This document shows, in pieces, positions 4,017 to 41,319 of a stretch of DNA of 64,000 nucleotides. The stretch spans positions 117,129-181,128 of the forward strand of contig CAWHEJ010000012.1 of assembly GCA_963828305.1 (NCBI GenBank), read 5' to 3'. The notes under the pieces were generated by a model. It was not told the DNA's origin. It saw nothing but the letters and a program-made list of their open reading frames with translations, and searched no databases. Source of the DNA: an uncultured delta proteobacterium (GTDB lineage Bacteria > Desulfobacterota > Syntrophia > Syntrophales > UBA2192). The translations under genes were made by a program, and so were the position numbers. Numbering within the stretch: position 1 is the stretch's first letter; each line of letters begins with the position of its first letter.

Positions 4017-5696
<1,680 letters not shown>

Positions 5697-5823
5697 GAAG
5701 TACCCGCCCCCTCACACCGCCAAACCGCATAAAAGCGTTCCGGCCCCCGGGGGAGCTCACCCTTCCCCGGGGGCTTTTCTCTCAAAAACAGAAAGACAAC
5801 CGGGAGGAGCAGCGGGACGTGCC

Positions 5824-7530
5824 ATGAAACCCCCATCGAAGCCCACATCACCGGACAACAGGGTTGAGATACCCGCCTCGCGCGGAAAGGAGCTCCTGCG
5901 TGAGTTCGACAGCCTCGGCGGCGGGGAGATCCTGGAGCGCATCCTCAACGAGAAGAATCCCCGCAAGGTGGTCGAGGAATTTCCCGCCGGGGATTTTTTC
6001 TGGCTCATCAAGAAGATCGGAAGCGACGACTCTCTGGCGCTGCTGGAGCTTGCCACCCCGGATCAGTGGCAATATATCCTCGACATGGAGATCTGGGACC
6101 GCGACGATATCAACACCGGCGAGACCCTGTCCTGGCTGAGGCGGCGCTTCGACACCGACAGCCGCAAAACGGTTGCCTGGCTGCTGGGAGAGGGAAGCGC
6201 CCTGACCTATTATATCCTGCAAAAGAGCATCGAGGTGATGGTCCGGGAGGAGGACGACAACGAGAAGGAGATCCCCGAGGGGTTCTTCACCCACGAGGGG
6301 GTCATCTATTTGAGGGCCGTTGATACGGAGTTCGAGCCATTTCTGAGGGAGCTGACGGGCGCCATCGCCGCGGCCAGTATGCCTGCCTTTCATGCCCTGG
6401 TGTCCAGTCTTGCCGGGGTGATCCCCTCGGAGCTGCAAGACGGGATGTCCCGGATGAGAAACGTGCGCCTGGCCGAGTACGGGTTTCTCCCCTTTGACGA
6501 GGCCATCTCCATCTATTCACCCCTTTCGCTCGAACAGATGAACCTCGCAGGAAAGCCTGCCGCAATCGTCGACATCACGGCCGATGAAGAGGACCGGGCC
6601 CTGGTCCCCTTCCTGCCGCTCCACGAGGGGCCGCAGGGAAGCTTCCTGCAGGAGGCGCTGAGAGCCGTGAATGACCCCCTCCTTCTGGACCGGATGCGCC
6701 TGGAGTTCGCGGGGCTTGCAAACCAGATCGCTTCGGTGGAAGGGCTCGCCCGCGTGGAGCTGGCCGGCATGGTACGTACGACCCGTAAGGCCGCCGGTTA
6801 TCTCAATATCGCACTGGAAGAAATGACGGGAAGGGACCCCGGCCGCGCAGGCACTCTCCTGGAGAGCAACACCCTGACATCGCTCTTCCGCGCCGGATTC
6901 GGTCTCACTCTCCGCGTAAAACGAGTGGCCGATACCTGGCTCAGAATGGCCTGGTTCCGCAGGAGCGGGTTCAAGGACGGTTTCTGGGGCGATGAACGGG
7001 GCTCGCTGTTGTCGGGCCTCCTTCTGAAGAAGCCCCTGCTGTACACCGGATTGCAGGAAGGGGAGCTCTACCGGGATTTCGCCGGTGCCGAGGACCTCAC
7101 CAGGGCAAGCAGGGCCCTCATGGGACTGATCGCCATGGACGGGCTGATGGATGCCCTGACAAAGGAAATCCCGATCGGTCCTGAGAGTTCCGGACGGGAG
7201 GACCTGACCTGCTTCCATCTGCTGTTGACGTTCTGGGCCCGCAGGCGGCTCGGGCTCGAGCCCGGGTTTGCGGCGATCGAGCCTGGAGAGGCCCGGGCCT
7301 TCTTTGCGATCCTTCGCGAGGGTGAAACGGCACCCCCTTACCAGATGGCCCGCTTCCGGGAAGTTTTCATCGAGGACATGCTCGGGATTGCATCGGTCCT
7401 GCCCGACGATCTGCAGGCCGCCCTGCGCGAGGAGCTATCCAACGTCTGGGAGGAGTTCCGGGACGAATACGAAGAGGTCCCCCCCGCCGACACGGACATG
7501 AAACACAATCCGTTCCTGATGATCAGCTAG
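5824..7530 (+). CDS. hypothetical protein (569 aa), no recognisable domain
   Basis: Long ORF with coding-like composition. Internal ATG at 5824 (MKPPSKP...) chosen because the upstream part of the ORF overlaps the groEL 3' end and its stop region. Confidence 0.55.
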   Translation: MKPPSKPTSPDNRVEIPASRGKELLREFDSLGGGEILERILNEKNPRKVVEEFPAGDFFWLIKKIGSDDSLALLELATPDQWQYILDMEIWDRDDINTGETLSWLRRRFDTDSRKTVAWLLGEGSALTYYILQKSIEVMVREEDDNEKEIPEGFFTHEGVIYLRAVDTEFEPFLRELTGAIAAASMPAFHALVSSLAGVIPSELQDGMSRMRNVRLAEYGFLPFDEAISIYSPLSLEQMNLAGKPAAIVDITADEEDRALVPFLPLHEGPQGSFLQEALRAVNDPLLLDRMRLEFAGLANQIASVEGLARVELAGMVRTTRKAAGYLNIALEEMTGRDPGRAGTLLESNTLTSLFRAGFGLTLRVKRVADTWLRMAWFRRSGFKDGFWGDERGSLLSGLLLKKPLLYTGLQEGELYRDFAGAEDLTRASRALMGLIAMDGLMDALTKEIPIGPESSGREDLTCFHLLLTFWARRRLGLEPGFAAIEPGEARAFFAILREGETAPPYQMARFREVFIEDMLGIASVLPDDLQAALREELSNVWEEFRDEYEEVPPADTDMKHNPFLMIS

Positions 7531-7650: not shown

Positions 7651-8844
7651 CTAGTTTTTAGCCACCAGGCGGCGTACTGCCCCCTCGAGCCCGTCCAGCG
7701 TCAGCTCGTACATGGGGAAGACCTGGCGGATCATCCCGATGGTGCGGACGCGCTCCCACTCCCACAGCGGTGAGGGGTTGAGCCAGACGGCATGGCGGAA
7801 GCGGCCCGCAAGGAACTTGAGCCGGTCGATGCTGGGACGGGTGCTTCGCTGCGTGTAGTCGATGGCGCCCCCGGCATACATGAGCTCGTAGGGCGACATG
7901 CTCGCATCGCCCAGGACGATGAGTCGCGTCTCGGGGTCGCGATGGGCGAATTCGTCGAGCCGCTCGGGGCGATAGAAACGCTGGGCATCCTGCCAGATGA
8001 CGTCGTAGACGGAGTTGTGGAAGTAATAGGTGCGAACGTCCTTGAACTGGGAGCGGGCGTAGCTGAAAAGGGTCTGAACGAGCTCGACGTAGGGCTCCAT
8101 GGACCAGCCGCCGTTGTCGATCATGAGGATGACCTTGAGGCGGTCCGTAAGCCGGCGGTCGAAGACGATCTCGATCTCGCCTGCGTTGCGCAGGGTCTCG
8201 CGGATCGTCTTGTCCACGTTGACGAGGTCCTTGGGGCCGGCCGGCACCATCCGCCGAAGCCTCTTGAGGGCCTCGCCCATCTGGGCCTGCGTGAGGGGGC
8301 CTTCCTGGGAGTAATCCCGCCAGCGCCGGTCCATGGCCACCTTGATGGCCGACTTGTTCCGCGAGACCCCTCCCACGCGCATCCCCTCGGGGTGCGTACC
8401 CGAGTGCCCCACGGGGGAGGTGCCCCGGGTGCCGATCCAGCGGCTCCCGCCGTGGTGGGCCTCCGCCTGCTCCTTCAACCGGTCGAGGAAGTACTGGATG
8501 AGCTCCTCGGGGGTCATCTTCTTGAGCTTCTTCTCGTCGATGCCGAAGGCGGCGGCCACCCCTGCAGGGTCCTTCAGCCACTCTTCCAGCAAGGCCTTCG
8601 CGATGTCGGTCAGCTCGTGGGTCTCGGGGTCTTTCAGCTCCACGCCCCGGAAGTGATGGAGGAAGACCTGGTCGTAGAGATCGAAGTAGCGCTCGCTTTT
8701 AACCAGCAGCGACCGGGCGACGGTGTAGAAATCGTCGAGCGACGTGACGAGCCCCAGCGAGAGCGCCCTCTGGAGGCGCAGAAACGAGGTGGGCGTCACG
8801 GGGACGCCACGGTCCCGCAGGGTGTAGAAGAATTGAATGAACAT
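7651..8844 (-). CDS. VWA (von Willebrand factor A) domain protein, MoxR-associated (CoxE-like)
   Basis: 397 aa. The C-terminal VWA-like segment VILMIDNGGWSM...LIVLGDASMS carries a DxGxS MIDAS-like motif. It sits directly downstream of and co-oriented with the MoxR ATPase gene. Confidence 0.75.
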   Translation of the reverse strand: MFIQFFYTLRDRGVPVTPTSFLRLQRALSLGLVTSLDDFYTVARSLLVKSERYFDLYDQVFLHHFRGVELKDPETHELTDIAKALLEEWLKDPAGVAAAFGIDEKKLKKMTPEELIQYFLDRLKEQAEAHHGGSRWIGTRGTSPVGHSGTHPEGMRVGGVSRNKSAIKVAMDRRWRDYSQEGPLTQAQMGEALKRLRRMVPAGPKDLVNVDKTIRETLRNAGEIEIVFDRRLTDRLKVILMIDNGGWSMEPYVELVQTLFSYARSQFKDVRTYYFHNSVYDVIWQDAQRFYRPERLDEFAHRDPETRLIVLGDASMSPYELMYAGGAIDYTQRSTRPSIDRLKFLAGRFRHAVWLNPSPLWEWERVRTIGMIRQVFPMYELTLDGLEGAVRRLVAKN

Positions 8845-9041
8845 ATCCGGCGTATCGTCCGTACGGTTGGCTTATTGTAATCCCGTCCCTTCATTACCGC
8901 GAAGCGAGGAAGAGCGGACAAGAAAAGAAAAAAGTCACCTTCCACTCCGCGCTTCCGCTCTTCTTCACTTCCTAGCTTCGTCATCACCAATCTTAACGCC
9001 GGCTTAATGCTTGCCGCCTGCCGTGAGCCCGGAGATCATGC

Positions 9042-9896
9042 TCAGCGACGAAGACGGGCGATGGCCTTGGCGGCCAGGCCTAGATCGGCGCTTTTCTTGT
9101 AGAGGACCCCCAGGTACGGCACCTCGCCGCGCTGCAGGACGGCCGGCCGGAAGTCGGGGTCCGATCTCAGGGCGCGGATCCAGTTGATGAGCTCCCGCGT
9201 GGCGGGTTTCTTCTCGATACCCCCGATATCGCGGAGCCGGTAGAAGGTCTGCAGGCAGGCCGTGGCCATCTCGTCGCTGAGCTTCGGGAAGTGGACCTCC
9301 ACGATCCTGCGCATCATCTCGGGCTCGGGGAAGGCGATGTGGTGGAAGTTGCAGCGCCCCAGGAAGGGGTCCGAGAGGTCCTTCTTGGCATTCGAGGTGA
9401 TGACGACGACGGGGCGGTTTTTGGCCTTTACGGTCTTGTCGATCTCGATGATGTCGAAGGACATCTGGTCGAGCACGTCGAGCATGTCGTCCTGGAAGTC
9501 CGTGTCGGCCTTGTCGATCTCGTCGATGAGAAGCACCGTCTTGGCGTCGGCCACGAAGGACTGGCCGATCTTGCCCATCCGGATGTAGGCCTCGATGTCG
9601 CTCACGTTGCGCTTCGAGTCGCCGAAGCGGCTGTCGTTGAGGCGCGTGAGGGTGTCGTACTGGTAGAGGGCCTCGACAAGCTTCATGCTCGACTTCACGT
9701 TCAGGATGATGAGCGGCAGATCGAGGCTCTCGGCGATGGCGTAGGCGAGCATCGTCTTGCCCGTGCCCGGCTCGCCTTTCAGCAGGAGGGGCATCTCCAG
9801 GGCGATGGAGATGTTCACGATCTTGGCCAGTTCCTCGTCGAGGACGTATTTCGAGGCGCCGCGGAAGGAATTGGGTTTCTTTTCCTGTTCTTTCAT
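9042..9896 (-). CDS. MoxR-family AAA+ ATPase
   Basis: Walker A LKGEPGTGKTMLA, Walker B VLLIDEIDKA, and the sensor region VVITSNAKKDLSDPFLGRC are present. Start placed at MKEQEKK (9896) rather than the ORF-track 9968. Confidence 0.85.
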   Translation of the reverse strand: MKEQEKKPNSFRGASKYVLDEELAKIVNISIALEMPLLLKGEPGTGKTMLAYAIAESLDLPLIILNVKSSMKLVEALYQYDTLTRLNDSRFGDSKRNVSDIEAYIRMGKIGQSFVADAKTVLLIDEIDKADTDFQDDMLDVLDQMSFDIIEIDKTVKAKNRPVVVITSNAKKDLSDPFLGRCNFHHIAFPEPEMMRRIVEVHFPKLSDEMATACLQTFYRLRDIGGIEKKPATRELINWIRALRSDPDFRPAVLQRGEVPYLGVLYKKSADLGLAAKAIARLRR

Positions 9897-10021
9897 CTTT
9901 CGCTCCGTTGCAGATTCTCGCTCAGTGGCAATGCAAACCCCCGGGAAGCGATCCCGGGGGCGAGTCAATCTACTTCAAAATCCCGAAAAATTCCACAGCA
10001 AACAGCAGGGCTTCATTTACG

Positions 10022-11219
10022 CTACGAGAGATCGAACCCTTCCTCTTCCAGCTTTTTCTTGACCGAAGAGAGTTCCTTGTGTCCCTCGATGGCCGCCTGG
10101 ATCTCCTTCTCCCCCCGGAGATCCCCCAGGAGGATCGCCCCGGCGATGGAATTGTTCTCGATGACCAGTTTGCGGTAGATGCACTTCTCTTCATCTTCCT
10201 GGACGATGCACTCGTCGTCGCCCTCGGCGTCGATGTCCCCTATGGATACAAGGTCGATACCGGCTACCTTGAGCTTGTTTGCGGTCAAGGTTCCCTCATA
10301 AAGGGTCTCCTTGCCCGCCATGTTGGCCCCTGCGGCCCTGCCCTGGGCCATGGCGGCCGGCCAGCTCCCGTAATATCGCCCCCGGTGTTCGATATCGTCG
10401 CCGGCGGCAAAAATATCCTCGAGCCCCGCCTGCAGCCTGTCGTCGACCTTTACGGCCCGGCCGATGGGAAGGCCGATCTGCCGTGCCAGGGTCAGCTCAG
10501 GCTCCACGCCCGCCGAAAAGAGAACCATATCCGTATCGAGCCTGTTTCCGCTCTCGAAGAGAACGGTCAATCGCCCGTCCGCAGGGACGATCTCCCGTGC
10601 CCTCTCGCTGAGCAGGAAGGAAAACCCCATCTCTTCCATCCTGTGCTGAAGCAGCTGAGCCCCGGCCGGGTCCATCTGGCGGGGGAGCATTCGGGGGTTT
10701 CTCTCAACGAGCGTCACCTTGAGCCCTCTTTTGCGCAGCCCGTTTCCCGCCTCGAGGCCCAGAAGGCCGCCGCCGATGAGGGCGACGGATTTTGCCGACT
10801 CTGCGCGCTTCAGGATGGCATCGGCATCTTCCAGGGTCCTGAGCGTGAAGACGCCCGGTGCATCGGCGCCCTTGATGTCCGGACGCGAGGACCGGCCGCC
10901 CGTCGCCAGAAGAAGCCGGTCGTAGGAAAAGGCGTGGCCTTCCTTCGTTGTCACGGTCCGGGCGCCGGGATCGACACGAACGATCTCCGTCGAGAGGTGG
11001 AGATCGATCCGGTTCTTCTCGTACCAGGCCCCGTCGTGCAGGGTGAACGCTCTTGAGGGTCTTTTCCCCGGCCAGATACTCCGGCAGGGCCGGCCGGTAA
11101 TAGTAGAAAGCCCCCTCCTTCGTGAACATCCGGATCTCGGAATCCGGCTCGAGCTTCCGGATCGCCTCGGCGGCCGAATTTCCTGCCGCCCCACACCCCA
11201 CGATCACGTAACGGCTCAT
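10022..11219 (-). pseudogene. NAD(P)/FAD-dependent pyridine-nucleotide-disulfide oxidoreductase (NirB N-terminal/NADH-oxidase-like), apparent frameshift near 11046
   Basis: N-terminus MSRYVIVGCGAAGNSAAEAI (GxGxxG) is in frame 10704..11219. The protein continues (FTLHDGAWYEKNRIDLHL...VALIGGGLLGLEAG...) in frame 10022..11194. A single-base shift lies between about 11040 and 11060. Confidence 0.6.
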
Positions 11220-11383
11220 GCCTCATTCCCCTTTTACTATAGGCACTTGCAGATTCGTTATTACTGTACACTTCATGACAAAGGTCGTCAAGCTGCAATG
11301 CCTTGTCGGTATTGGTAGGAATATGTTATTTTTTGTTGCTCTTTGTCAGTCATTTTACTATGATCCCTGCTCCGGAGGGTATC

Positions 11384-12302
11384 ATGTCCGAAGAAATGAT
11401 GAACACAAAGGGTGTGGCCGCCTATCTGGGCATCAACGAAAAACAGGTCTATGCCCTGATCAAGGCGGGACGGATCCCGGGGACCCGCGTCACGGGAAAG
11501 TGGGTCTTCCCGAAGAAGCTCATCGACGAGTGGATCGAGGAGGATGCCCGCGGCGGATTGCACCAGGCAAGGGAACGCAGCCGATCGATGGAGGGGGCGC
11601 TCCTGGCCTCGGGAAGCAACGACCCTGTTCTGGACTTCCTGCTCACCGGGATGAGGCATTCCCATCCCGACTTCTACTTCTTCTGCGCCAACACGGGAAG
11701 CACCGAGGGTCTGAAGGCACTCGGCGGCGGGTACACCGACATCGCCTGGACCCATCTCTTCGACCAGGAGAGCGGCCGTTATAACGTTCCCTTCATTCCG
11801 AAATACCTGCCCGACATGAAAGCCGTGCTGGTGCACCTCTTTCGCAGGGAGATCGGCATCGTCGCGGCACCCGGCAACCCCATGGGAATCGCCGGCATTG
11901 AGGACATCGCCGGCAAGAAGGTTCGATTCGTGAACCGCCAGGCCGGCTCGGGCACGAGGAGTGCTCCTGGATTACCATCTGAAAAACTCCGGCATCCCGT
12001 CCGATGCAATCACCGGTTACGACCGGGAGGTTTACACCCACGTCGAGGTCGGGCTCTCGATCCTCTCGGGTGAGGCCGACGCCGGCATCGCCACGGTGGC
12101 CGTCTCGAGGCTCATGGGACTTCACTTCGTCCCCGTGACGCAGGAAAATTTCGACATGGTCCTGGGGCAGTCCACCTATTTCAGCAAGGGCATCCAGGCC
12201 CTTGTGGAAGTTTTAAGATCCCCCGGTTTCCGGGAGCGTTTCGAGCGTCTCGGCGGCTACGGTTTCGAGGATTCGGGAAAGATCCTTTATTCGAACATCT
12301 GA
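11384..12302 (+). pseudogene. HTH (excisionase/MerR-like) plus periplasmic-binding-protein (TupA/ModA-like) domain regulator, apparent +1 frameshift at about 11959
   Basis: N-terminus MSEEMMNTKGVAAYLGINEKQVYALIKAGRIPG is followed by a PBP-like domain. Frame 11303 ends just after ...RQAGSGTR, and the protein continues as VLLDYHLKNSG... in frame 11961..12302. The extra A lies in context cgagg-A-gtg. Confidence 0.6.
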
Positions 12303-12314
12303 AGGAGGGAAAAT

Positions 12315-13175
12315 ATGAAAAAGTGGCTGTTACCGGTACTGTTGAGCTTCCTTTTCCTCGTACCCGGCCTTTGCTGGGCACAGAAAGGCGGCTTTGTCTT
12401 CATGGCGAGCACCATCGGCCCCATCGACTCGGGGAGTCGTGGGAGCCCTGGAGGATCAATTCGAGAAGGATACCGGCATCCGGGTCCGCCATGTCGGCGC
12501 AGGCACCGGGGCCGCCCTGAAGATCGCCGAGAAGGGAAACGTCGATCTCGTCATGGCCCACGCCAAATCCCTGGAGGAGAAATTCATCGCCGAGGGCTAC
12601 GGAACCGAACGGATCCCCCTGATGTACAACGACTTTGTCATCCTGGGCCCCGCGGCCGACCCCGCCGGGATCAGGGGGATGAAAACGGGTGCAGAGGCCC
12701 TGAAGGCGATCGCCGCCAAGCAGGCCCTCTTCATCACCCGCGGCGACAAGTCGGGAACCCATGTGGCCGAGATGGAGATCTGGGCAAAGGCCGGGATCAA
12801 GCCCGCCGGCCCATGGTACGTCACCTACGAGAAGGGCTCCCAAGGAAATGCACCCACGACCCGATTTGCCGATTCGAGAAGGGGGCCTATGTCTTCATGG
12901 ATCGGGCGACCTACCTGGCGCTCAAGAAGGAGATCAAGCTCGTCATCCTCGTGGAGAAGGACGAGGCCCTGCTGAATTACATATCCATCATCCCCGTGAA
13001 CCCGAAGAAGTTCCCCCGCGTGAACCATGCGGACACGATGACGTTCGTGAAATGGCTCACCGACCCCGCGAAGGGGCAGAAGATCATAGCCGATTTCGGC
13101 AAAGACAAATACGGCGCCCCCCTCTTCTTCGCCAACTCGAGGGAGTGGCAGGCCGCGCAGAAGAAAACGAAGTGA
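12315..13175 (+). pseudogene. tungstate ABC transporter substrate-binding protein TupA paralogue with two frameshifts
   Basis: Signal peptide and start are in frame 12315. The core (GVVGALEDQFEKDTGIRV...GDKSGTH) is in frame 12394. The C-terminus (EKGAYVFMDRATYLALKK...IIPVNPKKFP) returns to frame 12315. An extra A sits at about 12435 (context gggg-A-gtc) and a second indel at about 12860. Homologous along its length to the intact TupA at 13230. Confidence 0.6.
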
Positions 13176-13229
13176 GGAAGCGCGGGAGAGCGGAAAGAGA
13201 TTTGAAAATAACGTAAAAGGAGTGACGAT

Positions 13230-14087
13230 ATGAAACGAAAATTCGCCTCAATGATCATGTTTGCGATGTTGGCTGCCCTGTTTGTGTTTCCAGCAACGAC
13301 GGCGGCCCAGCCGGCCCAGAAAAACGTCATCCTGGCCACGACGACGAGCACCCAGGACTCGGGACTTCTCGACGTTCTCATCCCCATTTTCGAGAAAAAG
13401 ACGGGCTACTTCGTGAAAACGATCGCCGTGGGCTCCGGCCAGGCCATGGCCATGGGCGCCAAGGGCGAGGCCGATGTGCTGCTCGTCCACTCGCCCGCGG
13501 CGGAAAAGAAGTTCATGGCCGACGGCAACGGCGTCGAGCGCCGGCTCGTCATGCACAACGATTACATCATCCTGGGCCCCCCTGCCGACCCGGCCAGGAT
13601 CAAGGGAATGAAAAAGGCCTCCGAGGCCTTCAAAAAGATCGCCGCAACAGGCAGCATCTTCATGTCCCGCGGTGACAACTCGGGGACCCACGCCAAGGAG
13701 AAGGACATCTGGAAGGCCTCCGGCGTGAAGTTCGAAGGCGAGAAGTGGTACCAGCAGACAGGGCTCGGCATGGGGCAGACACTGGCCGTGGCGGCCGAGA
13801 AGAAAACCTACGTCCTCGCCGACCGCGGGACATATCTGGCCCTGAAGAAGAACCTCGGCCTCGACATTCTGGTCGAGGGCGACGGGATCCTGCTCAACAT
13901 TTACCACGTCATCGAGGTGAACCCGAAGAAGTGGCCCAAGGCAAACTTCACCGGCGCCAAGGCCTTCGGCGACTTCATGGTTTCCAGGGAAACACAGGAG
14001 ATTATCAAGACCTTCGGCGTCGAAAAGTACGGCTCGCCGCTCTTCTTCCCCGATGCCGGCAAGAAAGAGGAGGCCCTGGGCATCTAA
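13230..14087 (+). CDS. tupA: tungstate ABC transporter substrate-binding protein TupA
   Basis: Signal peptide plus TTTSTQDSGLLD, SRGDNSGTH and VIEVNPKKWP motifs typical of TupA/WtpA-like PBPs. RBS AGGAG lies 7 nt upstream. Confidence 0.8.
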   Translation: MKRKFASMIMFAMLAALFVFPATTAAQPAQKNVILATTTSTQDSGLLDVLIPIFEKKTGYFVKTIAVGSGQAMAMGAKGEADVLLVHSPAAEKKFMADGNGVERRLVMHNDYIILGPPADPARIKGMKKASEAFKKIAATGSIFMSRGDNSGTHAKEKDIWKASGVKFEGEKWYQQTGLGMGQTLAVAAEKKTYVLADRGTYLALKKNLGLDILVEGDGILLNIYHVIEVNPKKWPKANFTGAKAFGDFMVSRETQEIIKTFGVEKYGSPLFFPDAGKKEEALGI

Positions 14088-14786
14088 ATGGACATCATCC
14101 TTGAAGGCATCCGTCAGGCCTTCATCCTGCTTATCACCTTTGACCCCGAGGTCCTGGGGATCACGTGGTTTTCCCTGAAGGTCTCGGGCACGGCGACGTT
14201 TATCAGCCTTTTTATCGGGATGTCCGTGGGGACCGTGGTGGCCCTCACGCAGTTTCCGGGCCGCAGCTTCGTCGTGAGCCTCATCAACACGGGGATGGCC
14301 CTGCCTCCCGTGGTGGTGGGGCTCTTCGTCACCATCTTCTTGTGGCGAAACGGGCCCCTGGGCTTCCTGGAGATCCTCTACACGCCGGCGGCCATGATCC
14401 TCGCCCAGGCGATCATCGCCACCCCCATCGTGATGGGGATCTCTCTTGCGGCCATGCAGCAGTTGCCCAGGAAGCTGCGCCTGCAGATCCTGGCCCTGGG
14501 GGCCACGCGCCTGCAGATGGTCCGGATCCTCATCCGCGAGGCGAGGCTCCCCCTGCTGGCGGCCATCATGGCGGGCTTCGGCAGTGTCATCTCCGAGGTT
14601 GGCGCTTCCATCATGGTGGGCGGAAACATCAAGGGCTACACGCGCGTGCTCACGACGGCGACGGTGATGGAAACTAGCCGGGGCAACTTCGACATTGCCA
14701 TCGCCCTGGGGATCATCCTGCTTCTCTTTGCCTACCTCATCAATCTCGTCCTCACGACCGTCCAGCAGAGGGAGAGGCCGCGATGA
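14088..14786 (+). CDS. tupB: tungstate ABC transporter permease TupB
   Basis: 232 aa, multi-TM, with the ABC permease EAA-like loop (AAMQQLPRKLRLQILALGAT). The stop overlaps the tupC start. Confidence 0.8.
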   Translation: MDIILEGIRQAFILLITFDPEVLGITWFSLKVSGTATFISLFIGMSVGTVVALTQFPGRSFVVSLINTGMALPPVVVGLFVTIFLWRNGPLGFLEILYTPAAMILAQAIIATPIVMGISLAAMQQLPRKLRLQILALGATRLQMVRILIREARLPLLAAIMAGFGSVISEVGASIMVGGNIKGYTRVLTTATVMETSRGNFDIAIALGIILLLFAYLINLVLTTVQQRERPR

Positions 14787-15871
14787 CGATCCTGGAGGCA
14801 AAGAACCTGAAGGTGATCCGCGGGGGAAGCCTGCTGGTCGATGTTGCGGGCATTGAGATCTTCGAGGGGGAGACCCTCTCGCTCATCGGCCCCAATGGCG
14901 CGGGAAAGACGACGCTCCTGCAGGCCCTGTCTTACCTGATGAAACCCTCGGCGGGAGAGATCTTCTTCCGGGGGCAGGCGGTGGGTGCAGAGCAGCGCAT
15001 ATTGGAATACCGGAGGCGGCTCGCCATGGTCTTCCAGGAGCCTTTGCTCTTCGATACGACTGTCTTCGGCAACGTCGTATCGGGGCTCAAGATCCGCGGG
15101 ACGGGCGGTGCCGAGGCCCGACGCATCGTGGAGTCGCAGCTGGATCGTTTCGGCATTGCGCACCTGGGCGACCGATCCGCAAAAACGCTCTCGGGAGGGG
15201 AGGCCCAACGGACAAGCCTTGCCCGGGCCTTCGCCATCTCGCCGGAGATCCTCTTTCTCGACGAGCCCTTCGCATCGCTCGACCCGCCGACCCGGGAAGC
15301 CATCGTCACGGACCTGGAGAAAGTCCTCGCCGAGACGAAGACCACCACGATCATGGCCACCCACGACCGCAACGAGGCCCTGCGCCTCTCGGACCGCATC
15401 GCCATCATGGAAGGGGGCCGAATCGCCCAGATCGACCGGCCTGCCGTCATCATGAACAGGCCCGTTGACGAGTTCGTCGCTTCCTTTGTTGGGACCGAGA
15501 CGATCCTGGAGGGACGAGTCGGGGACGTCAACGAAACGTCCCTGATCGTCAACGTGAACGGAGCGGAGATCGAAGTCGTGGGCAGAGGCAAGGCCGGCGA
15601 ACGGGTGCTTCTCTGCATCCGCCCCGAAAACGTCACCCTCACCATCCCCGAGGGGAACGTAAAGACCAGCGCCAGAAACGTATTCCGCGGGCGGATCGGC
15701 AGGATCGTCCCGCTGGGGCTCTTCCACAAAGTCGAAATTGCCTGCGGGTTCCCCCTGGTGGCCTACGTGACGACACACGCCCGCGAGGAACTGGCCCTGA
15801 GTGTGGGCATGGAGGTGACCGCCGCCTTCAAGGCCACCGCCATCCACGTCATCCGAAAGAGCGGCTCATAA
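14783..15871 (+). CDS. tupC: tungstate ABC transporter ATP-binding protein TupC with C-terminal TOBE domain
   Basis: Walker A GPNGAGKTT, signature LSGGEAQR, Walker B ILFLDEP. The C-terminal 120 aa resemble a Mo/W-binding TOBE domain. Confidence 0.8.
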   Translation: MTILEAKNLKVIRGGSLLVDVAGIEIFEGETLSLIGPNGAGKTTLLQALSYLMKPSAGEIFFRGQAVGAEQRILEYRRRLAMVFQEPLLFDTTVFGNVVSGLKIRGTGGAEARRIVESQLDRFGIAHLGDRSAKTLSGGEAQRTSLARAFAISPEILFLDEPFASLDPPTREAIVTDLEKVLAETKTTTIMATHDRNEALRLSDRIAIMEGGRIAQIDRPAVIMNRPVDEFVASFVGTETILEGRVGDVNETSLIVNVNGAEIEVVGRGKAGERVLLCIRPENVTLTIPEGNVKTSARNVFRGRIGRIVPLGLFHKVEIACGFPLVAYVTTHAREELALSVGMEVTAAFKATAIHVIRKSGS

Positions 15872-15910
15872 ACAAATGCGTACCTTTATTTGGAGGTCAA
15901 TCAGAAAACC

Positions 15911-16642
15911 ATGAAAGTATATATCGGCTTTGACGACACGGACAACCTGGACGCCGACATCGGCACGGGCAAACTGGCCCGCTGGTTCGAGGCATTGCTT
16001 CCAGAGGACTGTCGTCTCCAGGGTGTCGTGCGGCAGCAGCTTCTCGTCGACGACCGCATCCCCTACACCTCTCACAACAGCTCCGCCTGCATCATCGTGG
16101 AAGTTCCCGACATCGCCCTGCTGGAGACCATCAGGGAGAGGGCCGTCCGCCACATCGAAAAAGAGTCCCTGACGGGAAGCGACCCGGGGCTTTGCATCGC
16201 CTGGGGCGATAACGGGGTCTTCGAGCCCATCATGGAGTTCGGCCGCGGCTGCACGGAGCGCGTCGTCACCCAGAAAGATGCCCTTAAGGCAGCCAAAGGC
16301 TTCCATCTCTCCGGCCATGGCGGGACCAACGACGGGATCATCGGGGCGGCAGCCGGCGTGGGGCTCACAGCATCGGGCTGGAGCGGGCGGTTTATCGAAT
16401 TCGCCCGCCTTAGGGATTTTCCAAACATCGTCACCGTCGGGCAACTCGAAGAGCGCGGCATTTTCGTAGTCTCCATGGACCGCGACGCCGTCTCCCCGCA
16501 CCCAGAAGACCGGGTGGACACGAAGGGATGGCTCCGGCCGCGCCTTTTGGGCCACAGGGCGGTCGTTCCCGTGCTACCTTCCGGCAAGGGTTTGTGGTAC
16601 ACTCTCTGGGAGAAGCGCAGCAAAAAATCCCATGGGAGGTAA
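15911..16642 (+). CDS. hypothetical protein resembling the N-terminal kinase-like domain of archaeal TiaS (DDTD motif)
   Basis: MKVYIGFDDTDN...GTGKLA, IPYTSHNSSACIIVEV and GIIGAAAGVG match my recollection of TiaS N-domain motifs (GIDDTDS...CTTY, IPYKTRGNGAVSF). It lacks the TiaS C-terminal tRNA-binding domains. Confidence 0.45.
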   Translation: MKVYIGFDDTDNLDADIGTGKLARWFEALLPEDCRLQGVVRQQLLVDDRIPYTSHNSSACIIVEVPDIALLETIRERAVRHIEKESLTGSDPGLCIAWGDNGVFEPIMEFGRGCTERVVTQKDALKAAKGFHLSGHGGTNDGIIGAAAGVGLTASGWSGRFIEFARLRDFPNIVTVGQLEERGIFVVSMDRDAVSPHPEDRVDTKGWLRPRLLGHRAVVPVLPSGKGLWYTLWEKRSKKSHGR

Positions 16643-16647
16643 CGATC

Positions 16648-16896
16648 ATGCCAGGAAAAATATTCTACCGTGAGCGCGGAAAGATCGGCGAGGGGGAGAA
16701 AAAGCCCCGGTTCAAGATCGTAGCAGTCTCGGGGGTGGAGATCGATTTTTACTCCTACCATCTCCGGAAGAAGGAGCTGGAGCAAATCGCCAAGGCGGTC
16801 GGCGCAAAGCTCGTCCTGATGGAAAGGGGCACAAAGGGCAGCGAAGACGAGGTGGAAGTGGGTGAACCGACAAAAGGCAGAAAGTCAAAAAAGTAG
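16648..16896 (+). CDS. small hypothetical protein (82 aa), Lys/Glu-rich C-terminus
   Basis: ATG preceded by GGGAGG at 8 nt spacing. No recognisable domain. Positioned between the TiaS-like and MoSto-like genes. Confidence 0.45.
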   Translation: MPGKIFYRERGKIGEGEKKPRFKIVAVSGVEIDFYSYHLRKKELEQIAKAVGAKLVLMERGTKGSEDEVEVGEPTKGRKSKK

Positions 16897-16963
16897 CGGA
16901 GCCCGCCGGACTTTCAGGCTCACCCGCGGCAAGTAAACCCTAATAAACCAGTGGAGGCAGAAC

Positions 16964-17791
16964 ATGGCGCTGATCAGGGAGCGCGACGGGAAACGACTGC
17001 ACGTCAAGAGCAAGCTCATGGGGGAGAGTCTCGTCAGTAAATCCTTCGCCGAGGAGTACGACGTGGCCCCGCAGCAGAGGCTCTTTCCGGACGTGCACGT
17101 CCTGAAGATCGGCGGGCAGTCCATCTGTGATTTGGGCAAGAAGGCCCTGCCGGCAGTCGTAAAGGAAATCGCCGCAAACAAGAAGAAACACAAGATGTTC
17201 CTGCTCACAGGCGGGGGGACAAGGAGCCGTCACATCTATGCCATCGGCCTCGAGCTGGGGATGCCCACGGGGATCATCTCCAAGTTCGGCAGCTCCATCT
17301 CCGAGCAGAACGCGCTGCTGGTTGCCACGCTGCTTTCTCCCTGGGGCGGCGTAAAGATCGGCCATGACGAAGTCCTGAAGCTCCCGACTTACTTTGCCCA
17401 GGGCTGCATCCCCGTCATGCACGGGATGCCCCCTTACGACTACTACGCCCTGCCGTCGCCGAAATGGCGGATCCCCATCCACCGAACCGACGTGGGCACC
17501 CTGATCGTGGCGGATCTCATCGGGGCAAAGAGCTGCATCCTCGTGAAGGACGAGGACGGCCTCTACACGGACAACCCCAAGAAGAACAAGAAAGCGAAAT
17601 TCATCGCCGAGATCAGCGCCGGGGAGCTGATCAAAAGAAACCTCGACGATCTCATCATCGAGAGGCCCTGCCTGGAGATCCTCCAGAACAGCGAGGTCCT
17701 CGATCGCATCCAGATCATAAACGGTCTCAAGAAGGGAAACATCACGAAGGCCCTCAACGGCAAGCACGTCGGGACGATCATTTACAAGTAA
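16964..17791 (+). CDS. molybdenum storage protein subunit-like (MosA/MosB family, amino-acid-kinase/UMP-kinase fold)
   Basis: VLKIGGQSI, LTGGGTRSRHIYAIGLELGMP, HRTDVGTLIVADLIGAKSCILVKDEDGLYTDNPK and INGLKKGNITKALNGKHVGTIIYK align well with my recollection of A. vinelandii MosB (VIKIGGQSV, TGAGTRARHLYSIAAGLGLP, YRTDAGCFLLAEQFGCKQMIFVKDEDGLYTANPK, VNGLVPGNLTRALAGEHVGTI). RBS GGAGG at 6 nt. Confidence 0.65.
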   Translation: MALIRERDGKRLHVKSKLMGESLVSKSFAEEYDVAPQQRLFPDVHVLKIGGQSICDLGKKALPAVVKEIAANKKKHKMFLLTGGGTRSRHIYAIGLELGMPTGIISKFGSSISEQNALLVATLLSPWGGVKIGHDEVLKLPTYFAQGCIPVMHGMPPYDYYALPSPKWRIPIHRTDVGTLIVADLIGAKSCILVKDEDGLYTDNPKKNKKAKFIAEISAGELIKRNLDDLIIERPCLEILQNSEVLDRIQIINGLKKGNITKALNGKHVGTIIYK

Positions 17792-17957
17792 GACACAGCC
17801 TCCGGGGGATCGTCGCCGCCCTCGCTGAGAAGGCTTTTCGGGAAAGCGCAAAGGCAACGGCCATCCATGTCATCCGGCACGGGAGATATGCGTTATCTTC
17901 ATCGTGACTCAGGAGGATTTGCCGGAGGATCATTTCAATAGTAAAGGGGTATTGACC

Positions 17958-18449
17958 ATGAAAAAAGGATTGCTTGTTCTCGCCATCGTTCTCACCGTAA
18001 CGCTCGCGCTTTCGGGCATGCTCTTCGCGCAGGCCAAAAAGGGCCCTGCCACCGACGGCAAGTCCGTCTGGGACTTCATCCAGAAGGGGAAATACCAGAG
18101 CTGGAAGACGTGGCCCGGCACCGAGTCCCAGTATGCAGGGCCCGAGCCCCACGGGGCGTTTCTGACGACCTACGTCAACCAGGTTGCCTTCGACTCCATC
18201 AAGGCCAAGAAGGGCAAGTTTGCCGACGGGGCCATGATCGTGCAGGAGAACTTCGGCAAGGACAAGAAGCTCAAGCACATCGACGTGATGTACAAGGTGA
18301 AGGGCTACAACCCCAAGGGCGGCGACTGGTTCTGGGCGCAGTACAAGGCCAGCGGCAAGGTGGACCAGGAAGGCAAGATCGACGATTGCATCAAGTGCCA
18401 CGAGGCCCAGAAGACCAACGACTACGTCTACACGAGCAAGATGAAGTAG
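17958..18449 (+). CDS. periplasmic monoheme c-type cytochrome (P460-like)
   Basis: Signal peptide MKKGLLVLAIVLTVTLALSGMLFA and a single CIKCH haem-binding motif near the C-terminus. Size 163 aa. Confidence 0.7.
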   Translation: MKKGLLVLAIVLTVTLALSGMLFAQAKKGPATDGKSVWDFIQKGKYQSWKTWPGTESQYAGPEPHGAFLTTYVNQVAFDSIKAKKGKFADGAMIVQENFGKDKKLKHIDVMYKVKGYNPKGGDWFWAQYKASGKVDQEGKIDDCIKCHEAQKTNDYVYTSKMK

Positions 18450-18546
18450 ATTTGCAGGCGATTTGTCATACAGCGGCTCAAGTTGCGGCCGGCCCTGATC
18501 GGGAAAAAGGCTTCCCATCGGGCGCCGGCCGCCTTATATTGTCCCC

Positions 18547-18909
18547 ATGGCAAAAGCCCACCCCAGAATCGAGCGGGAGCGCAAAACACTGGAGACCATG
18601 ATCGGGATCTTCTGCCGGGACCGCCACGGCACAAAAGGGGAAATCTGCAGCGATTGCGCGGGACTTCTTGCCTACGCCGTAAAGCGTCTCGACAAATGCC
18701 CCTTCGGGGCGAAGAAGCCCACCTGCGCCCACTGCCCCGTGCACTGCTACAGGCCCGACATGCGGGAAAAGATCCGGGAGGTCATGCGTCATGCCGGCCC
18801 CCGCATGATCTGGAGGCACCCGGTCCTTGCCGCCTGTCACCTCATCGAGGGCCGACGCAAAGCGCCGGCCCTTTCCAGCCCCGAAGGCCGGGCCGCAAAT
18901 AAACCTTGA
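18547..18909 (+). CDS. nitrous-oxide-stimulated promoter family protein (YgbA-like, Cys-rich)
   Basis: 120 aa with the Cys pattern C..C..C...CP...C..CP.HC characteristic of the YgbA family. Confidence 0.65.
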   Translation: MAKAHPRIERERKTLETMIGIFCRDRHGTKGEICSDCAGLLAYAVKRLDKCPFGAKKPTCAHCPVHCYRPDMREKIREVMRHAGPRMIWRHPVLAACHLIEGRRKAPALSSPEGRAANKP

Positions 18910-29887: not shown

Positions 29888-30355
29888 ATGAAAAAAGTCG
29901 GGTTCACACTTGGGTTGGTTGTGGCATTTTGCCTGGTGTTCTCGTCGGCCTGGGCGGCAAGTCCGGACGACATCATAGGGAAATGGCTGAACGGGAAACA
30001 GACAGCCCACGTGGAGATCTACAAGGCCGACGGGAAGTACCACGGAAAGATCGTCTGGCTGAAGGAGCCCGTTTACCCCGCCGATGACAAGAAAGGCATG
30101 GCGGGAAAGCAGAAGGTGGACCGTGAAAACCCGGATGCTGCAAAGCGCAACCAACCCATCCTGGGCCTGGCCATTCTCCGGGATTTCGTTTTCGTGAAGG
30201 ACGGCCTCTGGGAAAACGGGATGATCTACGACCCGGAAAACGGCAAGGACTACAAGTGCAAGATGACCCTGGAATCACCGGACGTGCTCAATGTCCGCGG
30301 CTACATCGGCATCTCCCTTCTCGGCCGGACGGATACGTGGACGAGGGTTAAATAG
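29888..30355 (+). CDS. DUF2147 domain secreted protein
   Basis: Signal peptide plus the IIGKWLNGKQTAHVEIYKADGKYHGKIVW motif typical of DUF2147. RBS AGGAGG. Confidence 0.7.
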   Translation: MKKVGFTLGLVVAFCLVFSSAWAASPDDIIGKWLNGKQTAHVEIYKADGKYHGKIVWLKEPVYPADDKKGMAGKQKVDRENPDAAKRNQPILGLAILRDFVFVKDGLWENGMIYDPENGKDYKCKMTLESPDVLNVRGYIGISLLGRTDTWTRVK

Positions 30356-30361
30356 CACAGG

Positions 30362-30388
30362 ATCGAGGTTCGAGGAACGAGGTTAAGG
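30362..30388. repeat. tandem heptamer array CGAGGWW x3 (GGA-rich)
   Basis: cgaggtt cgaggaa cgaggtt aaggaaa. The core cgaggaacgagg also occurs at 57662. Confidence 0.55.
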
Positions 30389-30390
30389 AA

Positions 30391-30456
30391 AAAAGAAATC
30401 CCCCTTACATCCCCCTTTCATAAAGGGGGAAAAGAGGGGGATTTTTTATTGCCTGA
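30391..30456. repeat. 66-bp two-tier palindromic element, copy 1 (terminator-like hairpin plus T-run)
   Basis: aaaagaaatcccccttacatccccctttcataaagggggaaaagagggggattttttattgcctg has outer stem aaatccccct/agggggattt and inner stem cccccttt/aaaggggg. Confidence 0.8.
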
Positions 30457-31043
30457 ATCCCGAATCCTCACGCGCAAATGACAGACCGTGGGTGTCAACC
30501 CGGGCATTAACTTCTTCCTGCATCCGATAAACATCACTTTTCGCATTATGGCGGATTACAATCGGCAATACTGGCCGCTCCCTTCAATTTCCCCAAAAAA
30601 AAACACAAGATTCAGCTGAAAATGTCGAAAAGGATAGATGAAGACTTATCGTAATGGCCGCAATAGTCGAAGAGGTTGCCGAACTCATTCTCTGGCTGAT
30701 TTCGGCTTTCTCTCTGCCTAGACGGGCGAAATAGTCTTATTTGTCGTGACGCCAGGAAAACACAAACCAAGATGGGATCTTTATACGACATACTCTCCGG
30801 TCCGGTTTGGGCTCTTCTCAGACATCAGTTTTTGGATCGGCATGGCTTTCCGGGTTGTGATGCTTGTCGCGCTCTATGAGCGATTGCTTGAGTGATGGAA
30901 TAATACAGAGAACGTATAACCGGCACGTCCAGCGAAGCCGCGAGAGACGCGTCTCGGTGACGCCGGTGTTGGGCTTTCAATCTCGCTGGAGCAAGTACTC
31001 TAAGCCCAAAGGGCATTGAGAATACACAAGAAGGAGAACTACA

Positions 31044-32957
31044 TTGATAACAGGAATGATAGCATTGATTGCTGCAGGTATCGTTGTTATTGGTGTCCTG
31101 CTGCTTATCCTTGGCGGTTTTTGTTTGATTGGCCCCAATCAAGTCGGCATCCTTACGAAAAACATGTTTGGCAAAAAAATGCCTGAAGGACAAATCATCG
31201 CGCGTAACGGGGAAATAGGGGTTCAGGCGAGGACTTTGATGCCGGGGCTCTATTGGAGGATGCCTGTAATCTGGTCATTTGCCAAAGTTCCGGTAGTGGC
31301 GGTAGATATTGACAGTATCGGCATCGTCGAATCTATTGACGGCGAACCACTCCCCAAAGGGAGAGTGTTGGCCGACGAAGTCGAGTGTAATCAATTTCAA
31401 GATGCAGAGATGTTCTTAGCCAATCATGGAAAAAAGGGGCCGCAGGTCGGAATTCTGCGTCCAGGCACCTACCGGATCAATTCCAGACTGTTCAATATTA
31501 CCGCAGCTCCCGCGGTGAAAATAGATGAGAATACGGTTGGTATCGCCGTTGCCAAGGATGGGATTCCCTTGCCGACTGGCTATGTCATCGCCCCGAAGGC
31601 TCAAAATAATGACGGCACCGAAGCAGACCACAAGGCGTATCAAAATGGGCAGCTCTTTATCGACAGCAAAGGGTACCGGGGACCGCAGTTGGATACCCTG
31701 CAGCCGGGAATCTACTTCATCAATCCGAACTTATTTGACATTAAGATTGAAACGGTTGCAGAGGTCCTTCCAGGATACGTGGCGGTAATCAGGTCCAACG
31801 TGGGATTGGAGTTGGAGAGGACATCCGAGGGGCCAGATAAAACTTCCGGTGAAGGAAGACTGGGAGGTCCGATCCATGAAGATGTTGAGAAAATACTGAT
31901 CACCAATAAATATACTCGCGGCATTTGGAGAGAGCCGATCGCGCCAGGGAAATACAATCTGAATACGATTGCTTTCTCTGTCTATCAAGTGCCTACTTCC
32001 GCCGTCACCATCGATTGGGCAAGCGAGGGAAGAATCGGGACAGAGGTAAAGGGAGTTAAACCGACGGAGGCTAAGGCCGCGGGGGTACTGTACAGTTTTG
32101 ATCCCTTGAAGGTGACTTCTAAAGACGGCTTTCAATTGGAAGTCAATGTTCGAATGGTGATTCGAGTTCAGCCGGGCAATGCGGCCTACATCATAGCCCG
32201 GTTCGGGTCCGTGGCCAATCTGATCGATCAAATCGTCCATCCGCTGATCGATTCGTCTTTCAGGAATAAAGCCGGCGAGAAGAAAGCGATTGACTTTTTC
32301 CAAAGCCGGACGGACTTGCAGACCGAAGCACTGGCACACGCCAAAGAAAGATTTTCCGAATACAACGTAGAGGCTCAAAACCTGCTCATTGCCTATATCG
32401 ATATCCCGAAGGATTTGTTGGATACTCAAACCAAGAAGGAGATTGCCAATCAGCAGCAAGCCCAGTATGACCAGGAGGCACTGGCCCAGGAAAAACGCAT
32501 TGCGGTCATGGAGAAATCGTCTCGGGCGGATAAACAGAAAGATGTTATTGATGCCAAATTATCTATCGACATCAATAATGATCGGGCTGAGGCCAAAGTG
32601 AAGGAAGCTGACGGGAACAGGCGCTCTGTGATTCTTCAAGCTCAAGGGACAAAAGACTCCACAATCCTGATGGCTCAAGGGACTAAAGAATCTACCATAC
32701 TGGTGGCCGATGGCAATTCTTACAAAAGCAAGATTGAGGGCGACGGTGTTGCCGCTGCCTACATTGCCCAGAAGGAGGCCATTGGTCAGCAGAATGTAGC
32801 GATCATCAAACTCATTCAGGAAATAGCGGCCGGTAAGATTCAGATTGTGCCCCAGGTTCTGGTTGGGGGTGGGGAGGGCTCGGCGAGCGGCAACCTGTTC
32901 AATGCGTGGTTATCTCAAATGATTTCTCAAAACGCACCGAAAAATGAGGGAAAATAG
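31044..32957 (+). CDS. flotillin/SPFH (band-7) family protein, YqiK-like, N-terminal TM anchor
   Basis: TTG start 7 nt after AAGGAG. The N-terminal TM helix is followed by an SPFH-like region and a long Ala/Glu/Gln-rich coiled coil (EALAQEKRIA...). The gene is about 48% GC against about 64% in its surroundings. Confidence 0.7.
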   Translation: MITGMIALIAAGIVVIGVLLLILGGFCLIGPNQVGILTKNMFGKKMPEGQIIARNGEIGVQARTLMPGLYWRMPVIWSFAKVPVVAVDIDSIGIVESIDGEPLPKGRVLADEVECNQFQDAEMFLANHGKKGPQVGILRPGTYRINSRLFNITAAPAVKIDENTVGIAVAKDGIPLPTGYVIAPKAQNNDGTEADHKAYQNGQLFIDSKGYRGPQLDTLQPGIYFINPNLFDIKIETVAEVLPGYVAVIRSNVGLELERTSEGPDKTSGEGRLGGPIHEDVEKILITNKYTRGIWREPIAPGKYNLNTIAFSVYQVPTSAVTIDWASEGRIGTEVKGVKPTEAKAAGVLYSFDPLKVTSKDGFQLEVNVRMVIRVQPGNAAYIIARFGSVANLIDQIVHPLIDSSFRNKAGEKKAIDFFQSRTDLQTEALAHAKERFSEYNVEAQNLLIAYIDIPKDLLDTQTKKEIANQQQAQYDQEALAQEKRIAVMEKSSRADKQKDVIDAKLSIDINNDRAEAKVKEADGNRRSVILQAQGTKDSTILMAQGTKESTILVADGNSYKSKIEGDGVAAAYIAQKEAIGQQNVAIIKLIQEIAAGKIQIVPQVLVGGGEGSASGNLFNAWLSQMISQNAPKNEGK

Positions 32958-39497: not shown

Positions 39498-40250
39498 TCA
39501 TATCAGCCCTAATTTCCGTCCGAGGGAGAACCCGAGTTTTTCCAGCCGTCTCATGTACCAGTAGGTCCCCGCATTGTCGAGTGAGTCGAGTGATGCAATC
39601 AGATCGGTAAGGTAATCCCCCATGTGAGAGAAGTAGTCAAGCTCCCTGCGCTTCGTGAAATACGGACCGGAAAAAAGCCGCATCAAATCACGCAGAGCGA
39701 TGATCCCTCCCCTTTTTTCCTTGTTGAATTCTCCCCACTTGCGAAGATGTTCTTCCGACCGGAAGAAGTGCATCGTGCTTCACGAGTAGGGTACGTTGAG
39801 CATCCACCTTCCGATGGGTACGGAGACATGGCCAATCAACCCTTTCGGCTCCTCCGTCTCGATCTTGCCGTCCTTCACCTCCACTCTTATGGGCTCGCCA
39901 CAATCAAGACACACTGAATCGATACGCACCGTCTTCCCCGGAAAAAGCCAGCAGACCGCCAGCGATTCAAACGCTCACTGGCCGAACCATTTCTGAATGC
40001 CATCGATAGTCAAACGGTAATGTGTTGGGAGATTGTTGAAGGGTGCGAAAGACACGATATTGTCGGTTTTCGGGTAAAGCCACCCCGGAAAGCCGAGGGT
40101 CGAAAAGAGCTTGCGGAGTGTATTCCTGCCTTTCTCGGGCGACACACCCAGCGCGGCTGCTATCTCTGTGTAGTGCGGCGCTTGTCCGGTTGCAATCATC
40201 TTTTCGATGATAATGTGAAACGTCTGATCCAGTTCACTTGGCGTTGACAT
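39498..40250 (-). CDS. organomercurial-lyase (MerB)-like protein with two in-frame TGA codons at the positions of the MerB catalytic cysteines; candidate selenoprotein
   Basis: Three same-frame segments (40250..39978, 39974..39783, 39779..39498) are separated only by TGA at 39975..39977 and 39780..39782. Each nucleotide was hand-verified, and there are no other stops. Context ...KWFGQ-U-AFESLAV... matches MerB YAWC96ALD99TL, and ...PYS-U-STMHFFRS... matches MerB FC159CHVHFFAS. Strong SD AGGAGGT lies 6 nt upstream of ATG 40250. Hairpin UUCUUCC-GGUC-GGAAGAA starts 13 nt after the second UGA. Confidence 0.7.
39750..39767 (-). promoter_or_regulatory. SECIS-like stem-loop downstream of the second in-frame UGA
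   Basis: The perfect palindrome ttcttccgaccggaagaa forms a 7-bp stem with apical loop GGUC, 12 nt after UGA 39780..39782. Spacing is typical of bacterial SECIS. Confidence 0.45.
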
Positions 40251-40668: not shown

Positions 40669-40710
40669 TATTGCCTATCACGCATAATAACGTGACTCTC
40701 CCCAACTGCC
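40669..40710. repeat. 44-bp direct repeat, copy B
   Basis: tattgcctatcacgcataataacgtgactctccccaactgcc. Confidence 0.65.
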
Positions 40711-41243: not shown

Positions 41244-41319
41244 CGTAAAGTTCGAGCAGGACCCCGATTAATTCTCACGCAAATCCAAATCTGCAAATGT
41301 GAAGGGATGCCCCTGGTTT

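Follow-up and report, generated by a model that had tools for sequence, protein, structure and literature searches.

Tungsten is a scarce metal on which syntrophic and sulfate-reducing bacteria rely in several enzymes, among them formate dehydrogenases, aldehyde oxidoreductases, and benzoyl-CoA reductases. How they might buffer their supply of it is a question raised by a locus (positions 13230 to 17791) within a 64,000-nucleotide (nt) stretch of contig CAWHEJ010000012.1 (assembly GCA_963828305.1), here called the window, from an uncultured delta proteobacterium of the Syntrophales. Genes for a tungstate transporter, tupA-tupB-tupC, are followed there on the same strand by three others, encoding a 243-amino-acid (aa) protein that resembles the kinase domain of archaeal TiaS, an 82-aa basic protein (orf82), and a 275-aa relative of the molybdenum storage protein MoSto (mos). 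What would these three proteins do behind a tungstate importer? The locus is read here as one for the handling of tungsten, and elsewhere of molybdenum, with a MoSto-like, ATP-driven store and two accessory proteins, and the probability of this reading is put at somewhat above one half (roughly 0.55).

The original prediction had placed six co-oriented genes on the plus strand at this locus and had described a single mos-like gene whose product aligns along its length with MosB of Azotobacter vinelandii, a TiaS-like N terminus in the 243-aa protein, and a Lys/Glu-tailed small protein between the two. All of these descriptions stood. The storage module proposed in the same prediction is supported as a hypothesis, with tungsten storage suggested by homology and gene context. 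Of the three outcomes that the prediction had named as counting against it (a better fit of the 275-aa protein to UMP or carbamate kinase, a second mos paralogue, and lack of synteny), none was obtained in the window and the loci examined.

A single MoSto-family protein

The mos gene (positions 16964 to 17791, plus strand) encodes a protein of the amino-acid-kinase fold (PF00696; E value, 2.8e-23; 83.3 bits against a cutoff of 24.9). Residues 16 to 273 align with residues 10 to 267 of the MosB chain (E value, 2.1e-64; 220.6 bits), and in a sequence search of the PDB, MosB is followed by MosA (E value, 3.3e-43; 151 bits) and, at a great distance, by the best uridine monophosphate (UMP) kinase (E value, 2.7e-7). 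Identity is 42.6% to MosB over 258 columns and 36.8% to the representative of the MosA cluster. The protein has the N-terminal extension of about 45 aa and the insertion around “PPY...IP.HRTD” that are typical of MoSto, and its segments KIGGQS, TGGGTRSRH, KDEDGLYTDNPK, and HGMPPY align with MosB motifs. Catalytic features of the β subunit are kept, namely, the lysine of KIGG, the glycine-rich loop TG.G.R.RH, the adenine motif KD.DG.Y, and the methionine of GMPPY, which aligns with Met149 of MosB at a position occupied by phenylalanine in MosA. Bruenle et al. (2019; PNAS 116:26497) reportedly describe the β subunit as the catalytic “molybdate kinase,” MoSto as a whole as a derivative of UMP kinase, and Met-β149 as the residue displaced by the oxyanion entering the cage.

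Membership in PF00696, together with the names “uridine kinase” and “uridylate kinase” given by NCBI to close relatives, might suggest a bona fide UMP kinase or another housekeeping enzyme of the amino-acid-kinase family that lies 3' of tupABC by chance. The protein scores far below the cutoffs of both UMP kinase models, however (pyrH_arch TIGR02076, 54.9 bits against 158.05; pyrH_bact TIGR02075, 36.6 bits against 243.9), and the gap between MosB and the UMP kinases of the PDB, as well as the MoSto-specific N-terminal extension, also speaks against this explanation, which is effectively refuted. Close relatives are named “molybdenum storage protein” by JGI pipelines, so homology to MoSto as such is not new.

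The family is small. A search of 1.84 billion cluster representatives gave 58 clusters with E values no higher than 1e-30, and many of these are fragments. In a crude neighbor-joining tree, the window protein and relatives of type 1, type 2, and the P0243 type form a clade of their own outside the MosA/MosB pair. A scan at the level of the locus found no second mos-like gene, either in the window or in 160 related loci, comprising 80 loci from species-representative genomes anchored on the TiaS-like gene and 80 metagenome loci anchored on a sister Mos clade. Two paralogous subunits side by side, a defining feature of MoSto, are thus absent from the window locus, which has one Mos-family gene.

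Two partner genes and their conserved linkage

The small gene orf82 (positions 16648 to 16896, plus strand) is genuine and conserved. It is preceded by a GGGAGG ribosome-binding site, and a core of 60 residues is retained in 69 of the 80 related genome loci, while the Lys/Glu tail, predicted to be disordered, varies. The family has 448 members, none of them annotated. Its core is basic (isoelectric point, 9.7), with R8, R10, R21, H38, and R40 invariant, and a structure predicted with moderate confidence consists of strands at residues 3 to 9 and 22 to 28, a helix at 41 to 51, and a strand at 53 to 58. No solved structure matched this predicted fold, and no Pfam or NCBIfam model matched the protein at an E value of up to 0.01; the TOBE domain (PF03459) is absent.

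The 243-aa protein (positions 15911 to 16642, plus strand) carries the TCKD kinase-domain fold of TiaS in residues 1 to approximately 160, including the N-terminal DDxD motif. The alignment to TiaS covers only about 159 residues; the remainder (residues ~165 to 243) forms an additional small β-rich domain that differs from TiaS. As only the TCKD kinase domain is shared and the tRNA-binding domains are missing, the protein is not TiaS but a stand-alone TCKD-like enzyme; the TiaS equivalog model NF040849 gives it 19.7 bits against a cutoff of 600. The TCKD-like family comprises 3195 proteins at an E value of 1e-3 or better, with at least 594 matches in species-representative genomes, and its members are approximately 60 to 65% identical across orders. 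Many residues are invariant, including four cysteines and the motifs GFDDTD, GTGK, IPYTSHNS.AC, GSDPG.C, HLSGHGG, GIIGAAA.VG, GW.GRFIE, and W.RPR.

The synteny of the three genes proved to be conserved, and it is often linked to tupABC: the trio is present in at least 90 independent loci, mostly of Thermodesulfobacteriota, and is complete in the named strain Syntrophus buswellii DM-2 (locus L008). Among the 80 loci anchored on the TiaS-like gene, mos was found in 67 of the 77 with room downstream; 10 lack it, and 3 are truncated. All 67 mos-bearing genome loci contain orf82. Three gene orders were observed. The TiaS-like gene, orf82, and mos follow each other on one strand in 44 of the 80 genome loci. 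In another 23 (type 2), a PadR regulator gene on the opposite strand (e.g., L035, positions 10747 to 11148, minus strand) lies between the TiaS-like gene and orf82, and mos is convergent and belongs to a sister subclade with approximately 49% identity. The third order, [tupBCA]-mos-orf82(-) followed by the TiaS-like gene, occurs among the sister-clade metagenome loci. The recurrent regulator of the P0243 clade is of the DUF134 family in place of PadR (20 metagenome loci).

Of the metagenome loci anchored on mos, 39 have enough flanking sequence, and in 35 of these orf82 is no more than 1.5 kb away; of the 20 with 3 kb on both sides, 11 contain the TiaS-like gene. Divergence of orf82 follows that of mos more closely than does divergence of the TiaS-like gene (Spearman correlations of 0.74 [n = 91] and 0.46, respectively, with common descent as a confounder of both). 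It is therefore orf82, and not the TiaS-like gene, that is most tightly associated with mos; orf82 and mos form the core, which the TCKD-like gene often joins. Separately, a locus from a Leptospirales metagenome-assembled genome (MAG) (L065, positions 10618 to 10977) has the TiaS-like gene followed by a C-terminal mos remnant of ~48 residues that is 81% identical to the window protein, which looks like a decayed module outside the Thermodesulfobacteriota.

Tungstate transport and metal-related neighbors

The three tup genes (all on the plus strand) encode an ATP-binding cassette (ABC) importer. The product of tupA (positions 13230 to 14087) is a periplasmic tungstate-binding protein (PBP_like_2; E value, 7e-51) for which TupA is the best specific NCBIfam model (E value, 9.6e-73), although its 244.8 bits are below the equivalog cutoff of 400. 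Tungstate-binding TupA is defined by a TTTS motif and Arg118 in the pocket (PMC5517513), and the product of tupA has both, in ATTTSTQDSG and, as the Arg118 equivalent, in MSRGDNSGTH. The permease gene tupB (positions 14088 to 14786; BPD_transp_1) scores higher with the generic ABC_perm1 model (270 bits; cutoff, 100) than with the TupB model (166.3 bits, below the equivalog cutoff of 320). The product of tupC (positions 14783 to 15871) is an ABC ATPase (ABC_tran; E value, 2.7e-31) with a C-terminal TOBE domain (E value, 6.7e-13), and its top NCBIfam match is the tungstate ATPase WtpC (E value, 7.8e-83). The gaps that separate tupC, the TiaS-like gene, orf82, and mos are 39, 5, and 67 nt. A scan of the plus strand found no terminator-like site from tupC to the last gene. 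An operon is plausible on this basis. The promoter and terminator scan was otherwise uninformative, with weak promoter-like matches. The nearest relatives of the locus are in MAGs of the Syntrophaceae and Syntrophales.

Upstream of tupA lie two genes that are interrupted in the window. The first (positions 11381 to 12302, plus strand) encodes a one-component regulator with HTH_17 (E value, 2.5e-12) and PBP_like (E value, 1.9e-35) domains, the architecture of TaoR and TunR; a TaoR-like HTH_17 architecture is mentioned in PMC11980592. Among the 66 long genome loci, 20 have a regulator of this kind 5' of tup. The second, tupA' (positions 12315 to 13175, plus strand), was detected in the window by tblastn with TupA and encodes a TupA-like binding protein without TTTS, with 46 to 51% identity to TupA in two frames (positions 12433 to 12819 and 12876 to 13130). 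Compared with a 93%-identical MAG locus (L001), the regulator gene is frameshifted near position 11958 by one extra G, and tupA' is interrupted by three single-G insertions (positions 12436, 12878, and 12881); these may be either sequencing errors or genuine pseudogenization. Most tup-bearing loci have such a TTTS-less TupA paralogue (38 to 46% identity to TupA) directly 5' of tupA (e.g., L001, positions 6460 to 7218, and L008, positions 6183 to 7007), and its role could be that of a sensor or of a second specificity. No molybdenum or tungsten cofactor riboswitch was found at gathering score in the window or at an E value of up to 1 in positions 11000 to 18600.

To survey the neighbors of the trio without bias, every open reading frame (ORF) of the 160 loci was clustered, and Pfam families were then assigned. 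Recurrent neighbors include tup genes, the HTH_17/PBP regulator, ModA-type binding proteins, MOT1-family molybdate transporters, and TOBE-bearing ATPases, in addition to PadR and DUF134 regulators and subunits of molybdopterin oxidoreductases of the formate dehydrogenase type. Sixty-six genome loci span 10 kb or more. Of these, 44 have Tup-, ModA-, or MOT1-type transporter genes (some permeases counted as tupB may be of the ModB type), and 17 have molybdopterin enzymes of the formate dehydrogenase type. Such genes are a tiny fraction of a genome, and the enrichment is therefore taken to be very strong. Genes for cytochrome P460 (PF16694) and a YgbA_NO “nitrous oxide-stimulated promoter” protein at positions 17955 to 18909 were considered as parts of the module and rejected, as they are kept only in the closest relatives (L001 to L006).

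The same gene context would be expected if the three proteins served metal trafficking. The Mos-like protein would then be an ATP-dependent tungstate or molybdate “kinase” or gate that activates the oxyanion or discriminates between oxyanions, with orf82 as a chaperone and with the TCKD-like enzyme, and the metal would be passed to cofactor synthesis (MoeA) and form no large polyoxometalate deposits. The size of the orf82 product is that of a carrier, like Mop and Tub (PMC11980592), and the TCKD-like enzyme is linked to importers even where mos is absent. Nevertheless, the similarity to MoSto is full-length and includes regions outside the kinase core, orf82 has neither TOBE nor another known oxyanion-binding fold, and moeA and moa genes are not among the recurrent neighbors. 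Trafficking is considered a doubtful, though not negligible, alternative to storage.

A further neighbor is a cassette comprising genes for a TonB-dependent receptor, the TiaS-like protein, a fused double ATPase of the energy-coupling factor (ECF) type, a CbiQ-type T component, and a weakly PF09819-like S component. It is found in most loci without mos and in about 13 of the 160 loci overall (L010, positions 7974 to 13333; L013, L024, L032, L056, L062, L064, and L078; and L084, L104, L121, and L142), and it adjoins tup, orf82, and mos in L063, L067, and several sister-clade loci. When the cassette is counted, 50 of the 66 long genome loci contain a transporter. The cassette may represent a further, so far undescribed, means of uptake that belongs to this metal theme. 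An association of a different kind is found in P0251 (732 aa), a protein from the search of cluster representatives, in which an N-terminal membrane region resembling CbiQ/EcfT (PF02361; E value, 4.8e-10) precedes, in one polypeptide, a distant Mos-family domain (residues ~464 to 729); similarity of this membrane part to the ECF S-like protein is not significant (E value, 0.2). The link between importers and the Mos family is thus a recurrent one that takes several forms.

The cassette could also be explained by salvage of an organic compound, in which the TonB receptor and ECF transporter import a vitamin- or pterin-like molecule, the TCKD-like and Mos-like proteins phosphorylate it, and the link to Tup reflects co-regulation only. 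This is unlikely, as the cassette is confined to the few loci given above, whereas Tup, Mod, and MOT1 genes are several times more common; no small-molecule kinase comes nearly as close to the Mos-like protein as MoSto does, and matches to HPPK are at the level of the generic ferredoxin-like fold.

Elsewhere in the window, a c-di-GMP-I-GGC riboswitch aptamer (RF03167; positions 53236 to 53313, plus strand; 70 bits against a gathering score of 59) overlaps the predicted start of a 455-aa ORF (positions 53296 to 54663). A Cpn60_TCP1-family, thermosome-like chaperonin gene is present in this bacterial genome (positions 4071 to 7530, plus strand), its 3' end overlapped by a DUF6178 gene, and close to it the opposite strand carries VWA_CoxE-like and AAA genes (positions 7651 to 9968). 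The G+C content is 0.50 at positions 30001 to 32000 and 0.48 at positions 40001 to 42000, compared with approximately 0.60 to 0.63 elsewhere, and these stretches may be islands of foreign or mobile DNA.

A putative tungsten store and its relation to known systems

The homologies, folds, single-gene status in the loci, and linkage to Mo/W transporters are observed features, and from them we infer a scheme in which oligomeric state, cage formation, metal deposition, the identity of the metal, and the roles of both partners are all predicted. A TaoR/TunR-type regulator and TupABC would bring tungstate into the cell, where the three downstream genes would act as a conserved module that takes over the imported tungstate, or molybdate in some relatives. 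The single MoSto-family protein would form homo-oligomers, which, as in UMP kinase and MoSto, would probably be hexamers, and would work like the catalytic β subunit of Azotobacter MoSto. ATP and oxyanion would occupy the amino-acid-kinase active site, a labile phospho-oxyanion would form, and the metal would be driven into the protein cavity and deposited as polyoxometalate. The basic protein of 60 to 80 aa may be an obligate partner that binds the oligomer or the oxyanion, and the ATP-using TCKD-like accessory enzyme may couple the store to uptake or to release toward tungsten cofactor synthesis.

A more detailed proposal, put forward only tentatively, is a widespread and previously undescribed three-component Mo/W store in anaerobes. 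Its parts would be a homomeric MoSto-like cage, a dedicated basic subunit of 60 to 80 aa that takes the role of Azotobacter α, and a stand-alone TCKD kinase that loads or unloads the cage. The store would be plugged into the importer present in a given organism, namely, TupABC, ModABC, MOT1, or TonB/ECF, the last of which would then be a new Mo/W uptake route.

Several points weigh against a MoSto-like store. The argument for it is drawn from genes and sequence. Canonical MoSto requires two subunits, α and β, in an (αβ)3 cage, and its polyoxometalate-binding histidine and glutamate residues reportedly lie mainly in α. At the columns that discriminate between the subunits, only eight in number, the window protein agrees with β in three, with α in four, and with neither in one. 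In type 2 relatives the segment reads GIPPY, with isoleucine in place of the gate methionine. Convergent orientation of orf82 and mos in two clades is less typical of stoichiometric partners, and mos stands alone among unrelated genes in a few loci (L107 and L117). In addition, the TiaS-like gene is also found without mos beside the TonB-receptor/ECF cassette, so its function is not tied to the cage.

As paralogues were sought within loci, a distant second mos gene elsewhere in the genome is conceivable, in which case the system would be an ordinary two-subunit MoSto, with the TiaS-like gene and orf82 as mere neighbors. The window protein does score well to both MosB and MosA. However, the Azotobacter genes are adjacent, as implied by mosBA constructs (PMC6448029), whereas a second copy was present in none of the 160 loci. 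Furthermore, mos has retained orf82 and the TiaS-like gene as neighbors across three rearrangements, orf82 co-diverges with mos, and the clade of the window protein branches outside the α/β split. On the evidence of these loci, an ordinary two-subunit MoSto is highly improbable.

If the storage reading is true, the locus would encode a minimal storage machine as it was before the α/β duplication, and the TCKD kinase fold, to our knowledge so far known only from archaeal tRNA modification, would gain its first role outside that process. A single-subunit MoSto relative with two partners in hundreds of Thermodesulfobacteriota species would also change the view of how frequent cage-type Mo/W storage is. 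MoSto has been described as “having no known homologs” (PMC6448029), and MosAB is treated as a rare, late-evolving pair (PMC13144720). No MoSto homologues in anaerobes, and no TiaS-like or small-protein partners, were described in the searchable literature, which excludes most subscription journals; within that limit, what appears to be new is the trio itself, i.e., a single-subunit MoSto relative with two partners.

Each of the three proteins has a known counterpart from which it differs. With TiaS, the archaeal tRNA-Ile2 agmatidine synthetase, the 243-aa protein shares the N-terminal TCKD kinase-domain fold. TiaS is ~420 aa long and holds tRNA with ferredoxin-like, OB, and zinc-ribbon domains, whereas the 243-aa protein lacks these and has its own C-terminal domain of ~80 aa; it is bacterial and encoded in a metal transport context, while TiaS is archaeal and serves translation. 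The molbindins Tub and Mop resemble the orf82 product in being small (~70 aa), cytoplasmic, and encoded near Mo/W transporters, but they have the TOBE domain, whereas orf82 has neither TOBE nor a fold match and is paired with a MoSto-like gene. Tub, a TOBE protein, was presented in 2025 as the first characterized tungsten storage protein (PMC11980592).

The Mos-like protein has in common with UMP kinase (PyrH) the fold and a homo-hexameric ancestry, but the scores given above are far below the PyrH cutoffs, and the MoSto-type extension and insertion set it apart. With Azotobacter MoSto it shares, in addition to the amino-acid-kinase fold, full-length similarity, the N-terminal extension, the ATP-site motifs, and the GMPPY segment. 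MoSto deposits tungsten as well as molybdenum (PMC6448029; PDB entry 2OGX, listed in PMC6294228). The Azotobacter system is encoded by an adjacent mosB-mosA pair with no known small basic or TCKD-like companion and serves nitrogenase in an aerobe. The window, by comparison, has one gene from a separate clade, with both companions, which in strict anaerobes is located behind importers of tungstate or molybdate, and no nif genes were seen among the window ORFs examined. The system thus departs from MoSto in lacking the α/β pair and yet most likely works like MoSto.

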